Shown here piece after piece: positions 4,141 through 62,520 of a DNA stretch of 64,000 bases. Source of the DNA: Escherichia virus KFS-EC. The stretch is from sequence record MH560358. One strand, written 5' to 3'. Positions within the stretch are counted from its first letter, which is position 1; every line of letters begins with the position of its first letter. The notes beneath the pieces were generated by a model that was not told the origin of the DNA, searched no databases, and saw only the letters and a list, made by a program, of their open reading frames with translations. Position numbers and translations under genes: made by a program.

Positions 4141-4515
4141 AGAATATTTTACTTCGTCTACAATGTCTTTCATGACATTGATTTCCATTCCGGTCAGAAC
4201 ACGTTGGAACATGTGCTGCACATACGCTTTCAGGTATTCATTTGATGGCTTACTATCGAAAGTCTTTTTAGTGTAGTAGTCATCACCGAAAGCTACTGTA
4301 ATTACATTTTCGTCGTCGTTCCAAGCGATATAAGCAAATTTGCCGTTATCCCAGAAGCGAGCACTAATTGCTACTTTTGTTGAATCGAATCCTACTTCGC
4401 TGTGAGATTCAAGAACTACTTGCGTACCAGTTTCTTTATGAATGTAGTAGCGGGATACTAAGTCAAAGTTACGGGTGTAGTGACATTCGAATTTATCTTT
4501 AAACATCATCATCAT
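4138..4515 (-). CDS. hypothetical protein (125 aa)
   Basis: ORF preceded by PeSL-like cassette. Confidence 0.55.
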   Translation of the reverse strand: MMMMFKDKFECHYTRNFDLVSRYYIHKETGTQVVLESHSEVGFDSTKVAISARFWDNGKFAYIAWNDDENVITVAFGDDYYTKKTFDSKPSNEYLKAYVQHMFQRVLTGMEINVMKDIVDEVKYS

Positions 4516-4588
4516 TTTGATTCTCCTAAGTGTGTTTCGTTTCTATGTGTGCATTATGCTATAGTCGTTTATGGTTGTCAACACCTAA
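4516..4588 (-). promoter_or_regulatory. PeSL-like early promoter cassette
   Basis: TTGACA (4576-4581 minus), conserved leader and SD. Confidence 0.6.
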
Positions 4589-57733: not shown

Positions 57734-59785
57734 TTACATTTTAAATTTATCTGGCATTGCGTCTACAGATACCAGATCAGCGATAAGCTGACGTAGAGTT
57801 GCCTTATCTGCTTTCTTACGTTCGGTTTTAGCTTCGCTAATGAAGCTGGAGAAAGACAGGTCAGAAGCAGGTTTAACAACACCTTCACGGATGAATGCAT
57901 CACCGTCCGCGATCATCTCGCCAGATTCTTGTAATGCTGCCAGTTCATTTTTGTTCATAATATGTGCCTCAATGTAATAAGTTTCTTGTGAATCCGTCGA
58001 TGCCGTAGCACGAGTTACCGTATCAAAGGATAACACAACACCGCGAGGAAGTAAAATCTCGCATTCTTTGTAAGCAAATGCTTTGTTACCTACTGGCAAG
58101 ACAGGGAGGTTTTCCGCGCCAGCAATGGAGAAAGCAACATTAGCGCCACCTTCACCACGAGAGCCAGCCATAGAATCAACACCAGCAACGGCACTAGCCA
58201 CGTTTGCATTCCAGCCGCCAAAAATGTTAGGTGCAAGGGAAGTGCTCACATAGTTTTTAAAGTAAAACGCTTTTTGCTTACGTGCAGTTTCCCACATTTG
58301 CGACCGGAAGTCCATACCACGATACAGAATAGTACCCGGATCAAGTTTAACGCCATAGTTGGAGAAGGCATTATCCAGTGCATCGCACATCTTGACCAAT
58401 TCTTCTGGATCTGAGATGCCTTCAAACTCTTCCAGCTTACGGTCGGTTAGGAAGTTGTTCATATTGATGTATGCTGCATCGGCATATTCGCTCAACACAA
58501 AACCTTCCGCGCCTGGCAGATCAAGATCAATATCTGCCATCATTTCACCCATGTTGCTAGCAATTGCTTCAAACATACCGGAAGCAACATTACGTAGGGC
58601 ATCGGTTTTAATCTGGGTGATGTGACTACGCAGCATTTCAGCTTTTACATCTGCTGGCATAGACTGGTCTACTCGAACCATTGCTAGGGCGGTGATCTTG
58701 TTTTCGAATACTTCCTCGCTCATGATTTCTTTTAAGCGTTTGATTGATGCTGCGATAACTTCCGCAGACAACGGATCATATTGATCCTGAACTTTTACCA
58801 GTTCGCTTACTGCGTATTTTGCATCGGCTTCGCTTTCAAAAATAGTACGCATGAAACCATAGCGAGTGATAATATCACTTGTCCAGTCATTCAGAGAACG
58901 GGCGGTTGAACGTTCTAAGGCTTGACGATCAATCAGAGTATTAAACTGTTTCTTAGGTTCGGCTTCGGTGATATCTTCTTCCGGTTTAAGATTAATTTTT
59001 TCTGGATGATTCACATAGTCGCTGTTATAGGTCGCTTGAGTTTTCAGCATTTCTTCTTTAGTCAAACGAGATTTAGCCGCTACGCGTTGTTCCGCTTCCG
59101 CGTTTCGTTCTTCTTCTGACACAAGACTAGCCGCATACGCCTCATCTTTAGTCAGTGATTCACCAGTAGCCTTAGATACCCAGCGATCACCTAAATCACT
59201 TTCTACTTTAGTGAACAAGGATTCATCAAGTTTAATCCCTTTAATCTTATCAATCGCCATACCGCGACGCTTGACAACAACTAAAGCGATCTTTTTGCTG
59301 GTCATTACTTCCTGCTGGAATACTTCAAACTTCGGTGTACGACGCACCAAACGCTCTATAACGCGCTTAACCAGTTCGGTCTTACCTTTCATGCGGGATA
59401 CGTTAAAACGGAACATAACAGCGTCTAATTGCGCTTTACGGGCTGTTTCCATAACCACATCAAAAGCACTTGCCATGACTGCAATCGGGTTATCGCCTAG
59501 ACCATTTTTAAGCTGTACAATACGACCGCTTTTGTTCATTTCGCACAGTACAACATGTGCGGTCTTGTCACCCATACGAATGATTTTAGGTGTTTTGTTG
59601 GTGAAGTTACAAAGACGGACAATCACATCTTTATCGCGTGTCTGTACTGCAAAAAGCTGTTTAGGATTCTGCTTAGGCTTTAAGCACTGTACAGGAGCAA
59701 TACTGCCAAAGTTTTCTTCCTCTTCCGTCAACAGCCATTTCTCGAAAGATTCAATCATTAGATCGTCGATTTCTAAGTTAAACAT
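57734..59785 (-). CDS. alt: ADP-ribosyltransferase Alt
   Basis: 683 aa, C-terminal R-STS-ExE motifs; position after gene 54 as in T4. Confidence 0.85.
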   Translation of the reverse strand: MFNLEIDDLMIESFEKWLLTEEEENFGSIAPVQCLKPKQNPKQLFAVQTRDKDVIVRLCNFTNKTPKIIRMGDKTAHVVLCEMNKSGRIVQLKNGLGDNPIAVMASAFDVVMETARKAQLDAVMFRFNVSRMKGKTELVKRVIERLVRRTPKFEVFQQEVMTSKKIALVVVKRRGMAIDKIKGIKLDESLFTKVESDLGDRWVSKATGESLTKDEAYAASLVSEEERNAEAEQRVAAKSRLTKEEMLKTQATYNSDYVNHPEKINLKPEEDITEAEPKKQFNTLIDRQALERSTARSLNDWTSDIITRYGFMRTIFESEADAKYAVSELVKVQDQYDPLSAEVIAASIKRLKEIMSEEVFENKITALAMVRVDQSMPADVKAEMLRSHITQIKTDALRNVASGMFEAIASNMGEMMADIDLDLPGAEGFVLSEYADAAYINMNNFLTDRKLEEFEGISDPEELVKMCDALDNAFSNYGVKLDPGTILYRGMDFRSQMWETARKQKAFYFKNYVSTSLAPNIFGGWNANVASAVAGVDSMAGSRGEGGANVAFSIAGAENLPVLPVGNKAFAYKECEILLPRGVVLSFDTVTRATASTDSQETYYIEAHIMNKNELAALQESGEMIADGDAFIREGVVKPASDLSFSSFISEAKTERKKADKATLRQLIADLVSVDAMPDKFKM

Positions 59786-59853
59786 TTTATATCCTCTAGT
59801 TGATAACCTATAAACCTATATTTATGAAAACGGGGATTAACGCCCCCTTTTTA

Positions 59854-60066
59854 TTATAATGCACCATCAAGCAATTGCTCTAAGGTGTATCCTGAATAGT
59901 CTTTTTCAATCAGGATATATTTTCCTACTCGTTTAATACAACCACGCATTTCAACGTATTCTGCGTAGTTGATGGTACGAGTTGTTCCATCTTCCAGTAA
60001 TGCAGTACCGATTTCGTTAATGCGGTCATAAGTTACGTCGGTAATGATGATTTCGATGTTAGCCAT
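59854..60066 (-). CDS. hypothetical protein (70 aa)
   Basis: Start set at ATG 60066, which abuts the PeSL-like cassette; the track's N-terminal extension is translation of the leader. Confidence 0.5.
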   Translation of the reverse strand: MANIEIIITDVTYDRINEIGTALLEDGTTRTINYAEYVEMRGCIKRVGKYILIEKDYSGYTLEQLLDGAL

Positions 60067-60140
60067 TTGATACTCCTTAGTAGTTCGTTTCGGTATGTGT
60101 GCATTATAGGGGATCACCGATCCCCTGTCAACAACTTTTT
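60067..60140 (-). promoter_or_regulatory. PeSL-like early promoter cassette
   Basis: TTGACA (60126-60131 minus), GGGGATC...GATCCCC inverted repeat, leader CGAAACGAACTACTAAGGAGTATCAAATG. Confidence 0.6.
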
Positions 60141-60657
60141 AGTTATTTTTTAATTGTTCATCTTGCAATAATGCAATCACATGCTGGCGATGTTCTTCCG
60201 ATTGAGGTACACCGAAAAAGTTTGTTTTGTAGAAATACTCTAATCGGTCTTCTCGTGTGCTCTCTTCCATCATGATCGCGGGTAGTCCGAGATTTCGGAA
60301 ACGTCGCTTTTCTGCTGGCGTAAAATCACTGTAATACAACATAGAATCATCATTACAAGCAATGCTAAACTCATCTTTCATAAAGGAGAATATTGCGTTT
60401 AAACGCTGTTTACCGTCCACGATTTCGATCTCATAGCGAGAGCCATCATCAATCTTAGCCATTGCGATAGCACCAACCGGAAAATCATTAATCAGGTTTT
60501 CGATAAACATACGTTTGTTTTCGGTGTCCCATACCAAAGGACGCTGATAATCTGGGTTCATGTTGATATAGCCATCTTCTAACCATGCTTCGTAAACAGA
60601 GATGACAAAGTTTTTAGTATTGGTATAGTAACGGCGTTTAGGCGTTAAACGGTTCAT
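60139..60657 (-). CDS. DUF262 / ParB-like nuclease-domain protein
   Basis: DYQRPLVWDTENKRMFIENLINDFPVG...VDGKQRLNAIFSF fits the DUF262 signature (Y-x-RP-x-VW ... DGQQR); start at 60657 with AGGAG SD. Confidence 0.65.
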   Translation of the reverse strand: MNRLTPKRRYYTNTKNFVISVYEAWLEDGYINMNPDYQRPLVWDTENKRMFIENLINDFPVGAIAMAKIDDGSRYEIEIVDGKQRLNAIFSFMKDEFSIACNDDSMLYYSDFTPAEKRRFRNLGLPAIMMEESTREDRLEYFYKTNFFGVPQSEEHRQHVIALLQDEQLKNN

Positions 60658-60658
60658 G

Positions 60659-60991
60659 TTATAGTCTCCTGAATGGATCATCACGTAAATCAATATCTTT
60701 TAAGAACTCATCCCATGAATGGCGGATATTGTTCTTAATTCTCCAGATAAGCGCAGGGATTGAACGCTCTCCCATCTGGAAGTATGGATCATATGATCCG
60801 TATGACCAATATGCTACTACAATTCCACAATCAGCGCAATAGTATTCTATTTCACTTGCTGGCGACCAAAGTCCATCAATATGATCGGTGATCTTGCTTT
60901 CGATGTTATGGCTATGACAATCAGGGCAACGGATGCAATGACCTTGTTTATCGTAATTTGACGTTAGAGAATACTTAAACAATCTCATCAT
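60659..60991 (-). CDS. Cys4 zinc-ribbon protein (110 aa)
   Basis: CIRCPDCHSH...CADCG metal-binding pattern. Confidence 0.5.
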   Translation of the reverse strand: MMRLFKYSLTSNYDKQGHCIRCPDCHSHNIESKITDHIDGLWSPASEIEYYCADCGIVVAYWSYGSYDPYFQMGERSIPALIWRIKNNIRHSWDEFLKDIDLRDDPFRRL

Positions 60992-61704
60992 GGATCCTTA
61001 TTTGCTTCAAATACTGCCTTTGCGAATCCTCGCGGGGTAAGTGACCTGATAGTCTTTGTTTTCGTTCCTTTCCCGCCTAGCTTAGAATGCTGTTTACTGT
61101 ACCCTTTATTAATCTGCACCGGTTTCTTTTCTGGCATTATAAAGCCTTGTCCGGTCCATAAGCAAGTCTTTTTTGGGTACATATCACGGGCGGCAATATA
61201 CTCAGGAAACGTAGGATGCTTATCATCTTCCGGCAAATAACCGCCATATTCCCACGGATGGAACATGTAATCAGGCTTACGCCACATGCTAGAGATAACG
61301 CTTACAGGATTCTCTATCATGTAGGGAACTCCTAGCCATTCACCCAAATAAGCGGTTATTTTAGCTGCCCGTACATCATGAACTTGAATCAATGGTCCTT
61401 GTTCTAGTTTCTTTCGTTCAAAGTGCGCAGCGCCACTAACAGCTAAATTGGTGCACGGTGGGAATGCAAAGATAATATCCGGTTTCCCCCATTCAAGGTC
61501 CATTGCTCTTTCCAGCCAGTTCAAATCAACCCAGGTGTTTACATAGGTAATGTTTTGATGTTCAAATCGGGTATTATATTTTTTGTATGTACCGTGGTCG
61601 CCATCGTCAGCATTAAAGCAGATCACCTTATGACCCGCTTTAGCCCATTCTAACCCCATTATCCCCGATCCGTCAAAGTTGCAGAATATTAATTTTTGTT
61701 TCAT
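60988..61704 (-). CDS. compact DNA C5-cytosine methyltransferase-like protein
   Basis: Motif I-like FCNFDGSGIMG, motif IV IIFAFPPCTNLAVSG (catalytic Pro-Cys), motif VI MIENPVS in canonical order and spacing; no recognisable target-recognition region or motifs IX/X. Confidence 0.6.
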   Translation of the reverse strand: MKQKLIFCNFDGSGIMGLEWAKAGHKVICFNADDGDHGTYKKYNTRFEHQNITYVNTWVDLNWLERAMDLEWGKPDIIFAFPPCTNLAVSGAAHFERKKLEQGPLIQVHDVRAAKITAYLGEWLGVPYMIENPVSVISSMWRKPDYMFHPWEYGGYLPEDDKHPTFPEYIAARDMYPKKTCLWTGQGFIMPEKKPVQINKGYSKQHSKLGGKGTKTKTIRSLTPRGFAKAVFEANKDP

Positions 61705-61946
61705 ATACTCCCCTTTAATCCAACACAGATTTTAGAAGGTTCTTTGCCGTGCCACATTAAGTAAAGTCCGTTAATGCGGCCTTGTTTTGTATATGATTCT
61801 TTTCTGATCTTCTTATAGTGTCGTGTTTCCTCAGCCGATTGTTTAGAATACCAATCATAAAGGAAGATGAACAAAGGCCACCCATTAGCGGCCTTAATGC
61901 AGTTATTCAAAAATTCCTTATTGCGTTTAATTAATTTTCTTTTCAC
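61701..61946 (-). CDS. hypothetical protein (81 aa)
   Basis: ORF, stop/start overlap with neighbours. Confidence 0.45.
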   Translation of the reverse strand: MKRKLIKRNKEFLNNCIKAANGWPLFIFLYDWYSKQSAEETRHYKKIRKESYTKQGRINGLYLMWHGKEPSKICVGLKGSI

Positions 61947-62194
61947 GCTGCCCCCATTGGTTTGATAGTAACAGAATCTAAAAGACCTTTGTTAGCCAGT
62001 TCGCGGCAAGTTTTCAGATCCGCAACTTCCCAGCCAGCCGCAATCAGGTTATCGATTAGGCTGTTAGCAACTTCTTCGCTCATGAAAGAGCACTGTTTGC
62101 CGATGGTGTAGCGTACACGCTGTAATTTCAGTTTACGGAAGCCTTTAACGTTCAGGTCTTTAGCGATTTTCTTTGCGGTTTCGATGTTAGCCAT
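61943..62194 (-). CDS. hypothetical protein (83 aa)
   Basis: First gene after a PeSL-like cassette. Confidence 0.5.
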   Translation of the reverse strand: MANIETAKKIAKDLNVKGFRKLKLQRVRYTIGKQCSFMSEEVANSLIDNLIAAGWEVADLKTCRELANKGLLDSVTIKPMGAA

Positions 62195-62275
62195 TGTTTG
62201 ATTCTCCTAAGTGGTATCTCGTCTTGATGGTTGTATTGTAGGGGGAGTTATCCTCCCCTGTCAACACTTTTTATA
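62195..62275 (-). promoter_or_regulatory. PeSL-like early promoter cassette
   Basis: TTGACAGGGGAGGATAACTCCCCCTACAATACAACC...GGAGAATCAAACAATG (minus strand). Confidence 0.6.
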
Positions 62276-62278
62276 AAA

Positions 62279-62446
62279 TTATTTGTTAATTTCTGGTGCG
62301 TTGCTAGGATAGTAACCTTCTTTAACTCCGAGATATTTCGCAACCATCCCTACAATCTTCTGTGCTACTACAATGTCAAATTTCAGATAATCTTCGCCGT
62401 GGGTTTCAATGATATATGCTTCACATGCTGCTTTAGTCTCGAACAT
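62279..62446 (-). CDS. small hypothetical protein (55 aa)
   Basis: Below track cutoff; ATG abuts a PeSL-like cassette. Confidence 0.45.
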   Translation of the reverse strand: MFETKAACEAYIIETHGEDYLKFDIVVAQKIVGMVAKYLGVKEGYYPSNAPEINK

Positions 62447-62520
62447 TTTGATTCTCCTATTTCGTTTCGTTATGTGTGTATTATAGGGGATCTCCCGATC
62501 CCCGTCAACAACTTTTTTAA
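62447..62520 (-). promoter_or_regulatory. PeSL-like early promoter cassette
   Basis: TTGACG variant -35, GGGGATCGGGAGATCCCC inverted repeat, conserved leader. Confidence 0.55.

Follow-up and report, generated by a model that had tools for sequence, protein, structure and literature searches.

Does the block of five early genes near one end of the Escherichia virus KFS-EC sequence, which includes genes for a methyltransferase-like, a zinc-ribbon and a DUF262 protein, encode a DNA modification or anti-defence machine, or do these genes merely travel side by side? The window, i.e. the whole 64,000-nucleotide stretch analysed here (record MH560358), belongs to a Krischvirus, an RB49-like coliphage, and is 98.7% identical to Shigella phage Sf20. 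We consider the block to be a mosaic of five independently acquired accessory genes in an early unit bounded by PeSL elements, forming no system, with the 238-aa protein as a stand-alone methyltransferase; we put the probability of this reading at about 0.7. The layout of the genes, the promoters, the fold, the family assignment and the absence of linkage were computed here and the activity of a homologue is taken from the literature, while we infer the activity of the window's own 238-aa copy, its target and biological role, and the roles of its neighbours.

Organization of the cassette

The cassette genes match RB49 p190 to p187 and adjoin alt, in a hyperplastic region of the RB49-like phage. 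In regions of this type, ORFans are shuffled by PeSL cassettes (PMC2839356, Arbiol et al. 2010). The following features were assigned, in the direction of transcription:

62235..62264, minus strand: PeSL-type early promoter (TTGACA, 18-nt spacer with a GGGGAG...CTCCCC hairpin, TACAAT; 11/12 consensus positions)
61943..62194, minus strand: 83-aa ORF, RB49p190 homologue (phrog_14908, E 5e-59)
61701..61946, minus strand: 81-aa ORF with GTG start, RB49p189.1 homologue (phrog_7065, E 6e-38)
60988..61704, minus strand: 238-aa putative compact Dcm-like cytosine-C5 methyltransferase, RB49p189 homologue (phrog_757, E 2e-89)
60659..60991, minus strand: 110-aa Cys4 zinc-ribbon protein, RB49p188 homologue (phrog_2993, E 1e-33)
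60139..60657, minus strand: 172-aa DUF262-only protein, RB49p187 homologue (PF03235, E 5e-20)
60103..60131, minus strand: next PeSL, downstream limit of the cassette (TTGACA, 17-nt spacer with a GGGGATC/GATCCCC hairpin, TATAAT)
59832..60066, minus strand: following single-gene cassette (70-aa ORF 60066-59854, phrog_10679, and terminator-like hairpin 59847-59832)

The PeSL class of elements, a consensus sigma-70 promoter combined with a GGGG...CCCC hairpin, was defined in RB49 and phi1 (PMC2839356). Both PeSLs bordering the cassette, at 62264-62235 and 60131-60103, agree with the RB49-type definition in having sigma-70 −35 and −10 hexamers (11-12 of 12 positions) and a G/C-rich hairpin (stems of 6-7 bp) with ORFans between them. 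They are an instance of this element and nothing essential distinguishes them from the PeSL cassettes of RB49 and phi1. Besides the one at 60131-60103, further PeSL sites lie at 62508-62480 and 2317-2289 of the window. The preliminary description had proposed five packed minus-strand genes behind an early PeSL-like promoter. All five ORFs were found as claimed, the promoter is real, and the PeSLs flanking the block support a single early PeSL-driven transcription unit.

Three of the gene junctions are 4-nt overlaps (GTGA, ATGA and ATGA) and the fourth is a 1-nt gap. Early genes of phages are normally packed with stop/start overlaps, and such packing is no proof of functional coupling. The overlaps reported earlier stand, but not as a sign that the products work together; adjacency and translational coupling within a region shuffled by PeSLs should not be taken for a functional system. 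The last ORF had been given as 184 aa, which corresponds to an upstream TTG at 60693. The ORF is there, but the ATG at 60657, which is preceded by AGGAG 8 nt upstream and is the start annotated in RB49, gives 172 aa, the length of the database product.

The 238-aa protein and its family

As described earlier, the 238-aa protein contains the C5-methyltransferase motifs I (F10-D-G-S-G14), IV (P82-P-C84) and VI (E131-N-P133) in canonical order. Its key residues are F10-G14, the catalytic C84, E131 and K178/K179. C84 and E131 did not vary among 36 close and 54 distant homologues, and the other motif residues were invariant or nearly so. Several profile searches speak against the preferred reading. 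The PF00145 search suggested as a check gave 13.2 bits (E 0.058) over residues 10-93 only, below the gathering cut-off of 22 bits, and just one of 54 diverse members of the family reached E 0.01. NCBIfam returned no match for either the 238-aa methyltransferase or the DUF262 protein, no C5-methyltransferase was retrieved by sequence from PDB chains with the 238-aa protein or with two family profiles, and a scan of genome contigs with the window protein as sole query yielded no match. When the family was aligned with E. coli Dcm by hhalign, PPC and ENP fell in register with PC and ENV, but the alignment was not significant (E 0.17), so "Dcm-like" is used here as a functional label and not as a statement of orthology.

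Structure prediction of the 238-aa protein alone, also proposed as a check, was positive: the predicted domain is complete, with seven strands and a C-terminal helix, and its class I Rossmann methyltransferase fold resembles solved C5-methyltransferases most closely. Its best structural neighbours are DNA enzymes, not RNA enzymes, and DNMT2-type tRNA methyltransferases also occur among the neighbours. Judged by PHROG 757 membership, motif order and predicted fold, the 238-aa protein is thus a compact C5-cytosine-methyltransferase-like enzyme, as had been suggested. The further claim that it has no room for a target-recognition domain (TRD) or motifs IX/X holds in part. There is no large variable TRD, but a conserved insert of about 70 aa (residues 149-219) occupies its place, and this insert is even more conserved than the catalytic half (mean top-residue frequency 0.57 vs 0.44). 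The most conserved stretch of the protein is the C-terminal IRSLTPRGFAKAVFEAN segment, which by our reading stands in for motifs IX/X.

M.HhaI, M.HaeIII and E. coli Dcm, all of PF00145, share with the window protein the motif order I-IV-VI, the Rossmann domain, the PC loop and the ENV-type glutamate. The window protein is, however, approximately 90-230 residues shorter, carries the conserved 70-aa insert in place of a variable TRD, scores below the PF00145 gathering cut-off and has no significant alignment to E. coli Dcm. The catalytic domains of DNMT3A/3B, with 14-17% identity, are eukaryotic and work in DNMT3L-containing oligomers with regulatory domains. The family itself is very large, with 1,519 phage records and with over 7,300 clusters when grouped at 90% identity and 1,150 when grouped at 50%. 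Nearly all members are single-domain proteins of 200-260 aa, and their gene neighbours vary from lineage to lineage with no fixed partner. Members are very frequent among enterobacterial phages, yet the family stays under the Pfam and NCBIfam thresholds.

One member has been tested. A full-length match (55% identity, E 1e-94) links the 238-aa protein to tiwna_64, a Drexlerviridae Dcm of 236 aa (711 bp), and C84/E131/K178/K179 align with C82/E128/K175/K176, exactly the residues mutated in the Dcm of phage K42. By matched gene length and the numbering of these four residues, rather than by sequence, the tiwna/FritzSarasin protein corresponds to K42 Dcm. K42 Dcm expressed alone in E. coli raised 5mC in retron msDNA as measured by LC-MS, whereas the mutant did not raise it, and the protein was identified as the trigger of retron Ec86/Eco1; the study is a preprint that used a dcm+ host, and CCWGG specificity was assumed, not mapped (bioRxiv 10.1101/2023.08.16.553469). 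The two proteins agree in PHROG 757 membership, length (236 vs 238 aa), the Cys, Glu and Lys-Lys residues, the stand-alone single domain and a DNMT3A-like predicted fold. They differ in that the K42 protein comes from Drexlerviridae and the window protein from Straboviridae, with other gene neighbours, and in that the activity of the window copy is a prediction. Since the family triggers retron Eco1, Krischviruses may be sensitive to this retron through their methyltransferase gene.

Does the enzyme modify phage DNA?

Krischvirus TB34 carries the same gene, and no modified nucleoside was detectable by HPLC/MS in its virion DNA (PMC13390438), so methylation of the phage DNA is sparse or absent. 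It could follow that the methyltransferase-like protein does not protect phage DNA at all and either has another substrate (the host chromosome, single-stranded or structured DNA, or RNA) or, in this lineage, is a near-silent relic. The BASEL Drexlerviridae with these genes, which are mostly very sensitive to restriction-modification, and the absence of a link between methyltransferase genes and resistance in BASEL (PMC8594841) point in this direction, as do retron msDNA being the sole documented substrate and the DNMT2-type tRNA methyltransferases in the structural neighbour list. We nevertheless regard this explanation as unlikely. The invariance of all catalytic and SAM-binding residues in very many lineages speaks for selection on an enzymatic function, and the top structural matches are DNA enzymes. 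Moreover, a CCWGG-like target would lead to methylation of only about 0.2% of cytosines, which HPLC could probably miss with ease. The window contains 27 CCWGG sites in 64 kb, a two-fold under-representation. These statistics were considered as a clue to specificity and set aside because under-representation does not discriminate between the models. The TB34 result also counts against our preferred reading.

The zinc-ribbon and DUF262-only proteins

The 110-aa protein contains the CxxC...CxxC pattern of the Cys4 zinc ribbon proposed earlier, although its matches to Pfam zinc-ribbon profiles are weak (best E 6e-4). Homologues were found in Nonagvirus (40% identity), where they sit amid unrelated genes, and in Felixounavirus, with no adjoining methyltransferase gene. 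The assignment of the last gene as DUF262/ParB-like was confirmed by a significant match to PF03235 (72.9 bits, cut-off 33.2 bits). The protein contains YQRxxVW, DGKQR and NFxGVPQSEEH, and YQR and DGKQR are invariant in the subfamily alignment. Its predicted model, of low confidence (pLDDT 63), was nearest to ParB, Noc, KorB and BrxU; these matches were not significant but are consistent with the Pfam match. PADLOC matched it to the N-terminal regions of NsnA and PD-T4-2_A, and it covers positions 9-183 of 417 in phrog_1583 and 47-187 of 385 in the NsnA model.

With GmrSD, BrxU and SspE, the 172-aa protein shares the N-terminal NTP-binding DUF262 domain with its QR and DGxQR motifs. The C-terminal DUF1524/HNH nuclease domain of those proteins is missing, as the protein ends at residue 172 and is followed by the downstream PeSL. 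It is therefore not a restriction enzyme of the GmrSD/BrxU/SspE type. DUF262-only proteins of 160-180 aa form a subfamily of their own in Straboviridae and in metagenomic phages. Homologues occur alone in RB43, Slopekvirus and related phages, with unrelated genes around them in RB43 and Slopekvirus. A literature search on the role of phage DUF262-only proteins returned nothing relevant. As a minimal protein conserved in several Straboviridae genera, it is a candidate modulator of DUF262-type defences; our guess is that it acts as a decoy or modulator of such host proteins. The genes upstream in RB43 and Slopekvirus (112 and 107 aa) were considered as zinc-ribbon equivalents and rejected, since they have neither a Cys4 motif nor BLAST similarity.

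Linkage of the cassette genes

The five-gene set is conserved across 55 Krischvirus records, in which the genes were never found apart. This counts against their being passengers, and it means that gene linkage has to be judged from loci outside the genus. Among 79 non-Krischvirus phage loci with the methyltransferase, searched by tblastn and HMM, none had a homologue of the zinc-ribbon or the DUF262 protein at 5 kb or less. The co-occurrence check thus gave the opposite of what the module proposed earlier, split or multi-subunit and serving DNA modification or anti-defence, would require by comparison with systems such as split M.AquI or the Dnd/Dpd type with its ParB-like partner: the components do not co-occur across independent lineages, and the methyltransferase, zinc-ribbon and DUF262-only genes were each seen without the others in other phage genera. 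In Erwinia phage pEp_SNUABM_01, the methyltransferase and DUF262 homologues are both present but approximately 95 kb apart, and the small DUF262-only genes on metagenomic phage contigs had no methyltransferase nearby. When viral contigs were scanned with the zinc-ribbon and DUF262 proteins as single query sequences, just Krischvirus contigs and one weak match came up; the distant homologues surfaced by tblastn against annotated phages.

Other DNA-modification systems do come with ParB-like proteins (DndB, DpdB and ParB-methylase fusions). Together with the adjacency, translational coupling and co-conservation of the three genes in 55/55 Krischvirus records, and with an insert of just 70 aa in the place of the larger TRD of other enzymes, this speaks for a Krischvirus-specific multi-subunit machine, in which a compact methyltransferase without its own target recognition would be joined by the zinc ribbon as a DNA reader and the DUF262 protein as an NTP-driven DNA clamp. 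We find such a machine improbable. Besides the results on linkage, the catalytic subunit does not appear incomplete without a partner: its model is complete and the homologue at 55% identity was reported to be active by itself. The putative recognition region outconserves the catalytic half, which agrees with an enzyme that needs no partner and has one target common to the family. It is slightly less probable still that the methyltransferase, zinc-ribbon and DUF262-only proteins formed a working partnership only in Krischvirus or, as a separate matter, that the family is the smallest natural DNA C5-methyltransferase with an undescribed mode of recognition. A partnership of this kind would turn the cassette into a three-part module for modification or counter-defence, specific to the lineage; the place or timing of methylation could, for instance, be shifted by a ParB-like clamp gated by NTP and a zinc-ribbon DNA reader.

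An undescribed system, for which the block had been a candidate in the preliminary description, is not supported either. The RB49 homologue is annotated as "DNA methyltransferase" in RefSeq (NP_891760.1), and dozens of RB49-like phages with sequenced genomes already have the cassette, with annotation. With a tested member in the methyltransferase family as well, the locus carries small weight as a discovery.

Pathways combining a phage methyltransferase, TET and a glycosyltransferase exist, and a C5-methyltransferase-like enzyme could be the first step of a hidden post-replicative route from 5mC through 5hmC to a sugar. Such a route would account for the hmC and glucosyl-hmC reported for Krischvirus SAP, described as fully modified although Krischviruses have no dCMP hydroxymethylase and no known glucosyltransferases (PMC13390438). 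It can practically be dismissed, since TB34, 99.96% identical to SAP and with the same methyltransferase, is unmodified, the two phages differ at the locus by nothing other than a 79-bp PeSL downstream of the DUF262 gene, which is duplicated in SAP, and the authors found no glucosyltransferase genes, could not identify a modification pathway and obtained for SAP the same modification profile as for seven Tequatrovirus phages in their collection (PMC13390438). A mixed stock would probably be a simpler explanation of the SAP modification.

Proposed mode of action

Under the preferred reading of independent genes, the 238-aa enzyme would be made early from the sigma-70 promoter. It would bind SAM, the methyl donor, by the FDGSG loop. 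The target cytosine would be flipped out, with Cys84 (PPC loop) as the nucleophile at C6 and Glu131 (ENP) as the proton donor to N3. Instead of a large variable target-recognition domain, the conserved insert of 70 residues would hold the DNA together with the KK/C-terminal segment. Sparse sites in phage DNA would be methylated, and host or retron DNA incidentally. The likely purpose would be to blunt restriction activity, with the side effect that retron Eco1-type sensors can be triggered. The zinc-ribbon protein would be a separate small protein and the DUF262-only protein a separate, nuclease-free NTP-binding protein of ParB/Srx fold, both probably independent of the methyltransferase. The 83-aa ORF at the head of the cassette gave a weak PADLOC match to the C-terminal segment of RT_UG35 (E 2.6e-5).

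Methyltransferase

The 238-aa protein of the cassette had been called C5-methyltransferase-like in the preliminary description of the sequence. This was right in substance, although the Pfam search proposed there gave a match to PF00145 below the cut-off (13.2 bits against 22, E 0.058) and over residues 10-93 only. PADLOC type II methyltransferase models were matched with an E value of about 0.01, and neither the NCBIfam profile search nor the PDB sequence searches with the protein and with its family profiles produced a match. Judged by sequence profiles, the assignment is borderline. The protein matched PHROG 757, 'DNA methyltransferase', with E 2e-89, and its homologues, nearly all of 200-260 aa, fall into 7,309 clusters when grouped at 90% identity and into 1,150 when grouped at 50%. 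Motifs I (FDGSG), IV (PPC) and VI (ENP) are invariant or nearly invariant among them. The expected fold was borne out by a confident AlphaFold model of the protein alone (pLDDT 91.9, pTM 0.90), in which the class I methyltransferase sheet is present with its seven strands; the PPC loop follows strand 4, and ENP lies where strand 5 ends. The top Foldseek matches of the model were DNMT3A, DIM2 and DNMT1, and hhalign paired PPC and ENP with PC and ENV of E. coli Dcm at the correct spacing in an alignment that was not significant. On this evidence, the protein is a minimal and very divergent C5-methyltransferase.

The suggestion that the protein has no room for a target-recognition domain or motifs IX/X was only partly right, as a putative recognition region is present in residues 149-219 and the C-terminal segment IRSLTPRGFAxAV. 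These are the most conserved parts of the family, in contrast to type II enzymes, whose target recognition domains are variable. We infer from this sequence conservation that the whole compact family may have one common substrate-recognition mode.

A homologue has been studied experimentally, in work available as a preprint. Mutants of Drexlerviridae phage K42 escaping retron Ec86 map to a 711-bp 'dcm' gene, whose product was modelled on DNMT3A with C82, E128, K175 and K176 named as catalytic or substrate residues; expressed alone, the gene increased 5mC in msDNA as measured by LC-MS, whereas the quadruple mutant caused no increase (bioRxiv 10.1101/2023.08.16.553469). The CCWGG specificity of K42 Dcm was assumed from E. 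coli Dcm, its sole support being an msDNA stem mutation in a dcm+ host (bioRxiv 10.1101/2023.08.16.553469). The 711-bp methylase gene of phage tiwna is 99.3% identical in DNA to that of the 'Dcm-like C5 cytosine methyltransferase' of FritzSarasin (BASEL), and positions 82, 128, 175 and 176 of the tiwna protein are occupied by exactly Cys, Glu, Lys and Lys. Judged by the length of its gene and the numbering of its residues, K42 Dcm is presumably a protein of this type. The tiwna protein is 55% identical to the 238-aa protein over the whole length (E 1e-94), with C84, E131, K178 and K179 aligned to these residues, which would make the window protein a member of a family of stand-alone enzymes that has experimental support.

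Zinc-ribbon and DUF262 genes

The cassette had been proposed to encode an undescribed multi-subunit system. We examined 80 viral-contig loci with a methyltransferase homologue of 52-64% identity, located on contigs of 40-55 kb or 120-145 kb and on one Krischvirus contig, using tblastn searches for the remaining four proteins of the cassette and HMMs for the DUF262 and zinc-ribbon families. Both methods found cassette neighbours within 5 kb of the methyltransferase solely in the Krischvirus contig (0/79 of the other loci); in those other loci the flanks held helicase and primase genes and small ORFs specific to the lineage. In annotated phages, 1,519 records contain the methyltransferase (Drexlerviridae, Dhillonvirus, Vequintavirus, Klebsiella siphoviruses and even Arthrobacter phages), 228 the zinc-ribbon protein (beyond Krischvirus, Nonagvirus with 40% identity, Felixounavirus and others) and 325 the DUF262-only protein (beyond Krischvirus, RB43, Slopekvirus, Karamvirus-type and more distant phages). 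Neither the methyltransferase nor a counterpart of the other partner was found around the DUF262 genes of RB43 and Slopekvirus or the Nonagvirus zinc-ribbon gene, and metagenomic DUF262-only genes (160-176 aa) are surrounded by unrelated phage genes. Erwinia phage pEp_SNUABM_01 has homologues of both the methyltransferase and the DUF262 protein, approximately 95 kb apart. The three genes thus have three distinct sets of relatives, as is expected of a mosaic hyperplastic region and unlike a functional system. With neither partner within 5 kb of the methyltransferase in the 79 non-Krischvirus loci and different relatives for each gene, the multi-subunit proposal is unsupported. The methyltransferase is a known gene type, a compact phage Dcm-like orphan methyltransferase, and it lies in a cassette of the known PeSL type (PeSL, an early σ70 promoter with a hairpin between −35 and −10) together with two unrelated small accessory genes, those of the zinc-ribbon and DUF262 proteins.

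The DUF262 assignment itself was correct, since the Pfam GmrSD_N threshold was passed. The protein resembles the N-terminal parts of the defence proteins NsnA and PD-T4-2_A and keeps the nucleotide-binding motifs YQRxxVW and DGKQR, together with NFxGVPQSEEH, a motif specific to its subfamily. In full-length relatives a second domain follows, whereas the window protein ends before that point and so cannot be a GmrSD-type nuclease. Its low-confidence model was nearest to ParB, Noc, KorB and BrxU, which is the expected fold class, with matches that were not significant. As a guess, it could modulate host DUF262 proteins or act as their decoy, or it could be a small DNA-binding protein gated by NTP.

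DNA modification in Krischvirus

Krischvirus DNA has been described as containing ordinary cytosine (PMC6563267), and HPLC/MS detected no modified nucleosides in TB34 DNA in a 2026 study (PMC13390438). A CCWGG-like target would lead to 5mC at only about 0.2% of cytosines, a level that could easily be missed; sparse methylation, or a substrate other than packaged DNA, is therefore compatible with the data, and heavy non-specific methylation is incompatible with them. CCWGG (the Dcm/EcoRII site) is avoided two-fold in the 64-kb window, with 27 occurrences where dinucleotide-preserving shuffles predict 54.5 ± 7.7.

Phage SAP, which shares 99.96% identity with TB34, is reported to contain hmC and glycosylated hmC with no known pathway (PMC13390438). 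In our view the cassette does not explain this. At the locus, SAP differs from TB34 by a tandem duplication of the approximately 79-bp PeSL just downstream of the DUF262 gene (OZ034687.1, locus positions 2520-2680) and otherwise solely at four gapped positions in a 4.4-kb alignment upstream. Seven Tequatrovirus phages in the same collection have a modification profile identical to that of SAP (PMC13390438). We see no reason to link the duplication with the modified cytosines.

Cassette layout and promoters

All five ORFs were confirmed at the positions originally described, as was their tight packing (three 4-nt overlaps and one 1-nt gap). The DUF262 gene had been read as 184 aa from TTG 60693; the ORF is present, but it more probably starts at ATG 60657, because AGGAG lies upstream and the resulting 172 aa is the length annotated in RB49 and seen in databases. 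The proposed early promoter is a textbook PeSL, and similar elements lie on the same strand:

62264-62235, minus strand, PeSL: TTGACA, 18-nt spacer with GGGGAG/CTCCCC hairpin, TACAAT
62508, minus strand, similar PeSL element
60131, minus strand, similar PeSL element
2317, minus strand, similar PeSL element

In RB49 and phi1, PeSLs have been characterised as strong early σ70 promoters carrying a hairpin of the terminator or attenuator type; they lie on either side of ORFans, whose shuffling in hyperplastic regions they mediate (PMC2839356). In view of this role and of the flanking PeSLs, the five genes are therefore one PeSL-to-PeSL cassette.

Of the 62 phage records that match region 59800-62500, 55 do so over 80% or more of it; Shigella phage Sf20 is the closest (98.7%), and RB49 and further Krischvirus genomes come next. 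The RefSeq equivalents in RB49 are RB49p190, p189.1, p189, p188 and p187, located just past alt within a long series of small minus-strand ORFs. RB49p189 is labelled 'DNA methyltransferase', its TB34 counterpart 'Hypothetical C-5 cytosine DNA methylase', and those in other records Dcm.

In two adjacent PeSL cassettes, the leading ORFs begin with the same 16 nt, ATGGCTAACATCGAAA, which encode the peptide MANIE (62194-62179 and 60066-60051, minus strand). The homology through which PeSLs recombine therefore reaches into coding sequence. RB49p186 (59 aa) and its PeSL, which lie between the DUF262 gene and a 70-aa ORF in RB49 (locus positions 4337-4516), TB34 and most Krischviruses, are absent from the window (approximately 60066-60139) and from Sf20, a PeSL-mediated presence/absence polymorphism.

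Directly downstream of the cassette, an Alt-like ADP-ribosyltransferase gene encodes 683 aa (57734-59785, minus strand; phrog_802, E 5e-179); in RB49, a second, shorter Alt-C-terminal paralogue adjoins it. The 83-aa product of the first cassette gene (61943-62194, minus strand) matched positions 722-785 of 938 of the PADLOC RT_UG35 (DRT) model (E 2.6e-5); this small phage protein thus resembles a stretch from the C-terminal part of a reverse transcriptase involved in defence. A weaker σ70-like site within the 5' end of the methyltransferase gene (61647-61676, minus strand; TTGACG, 18-nt spacer, TAGAAT; 10/12 positions) is probably a chance match.
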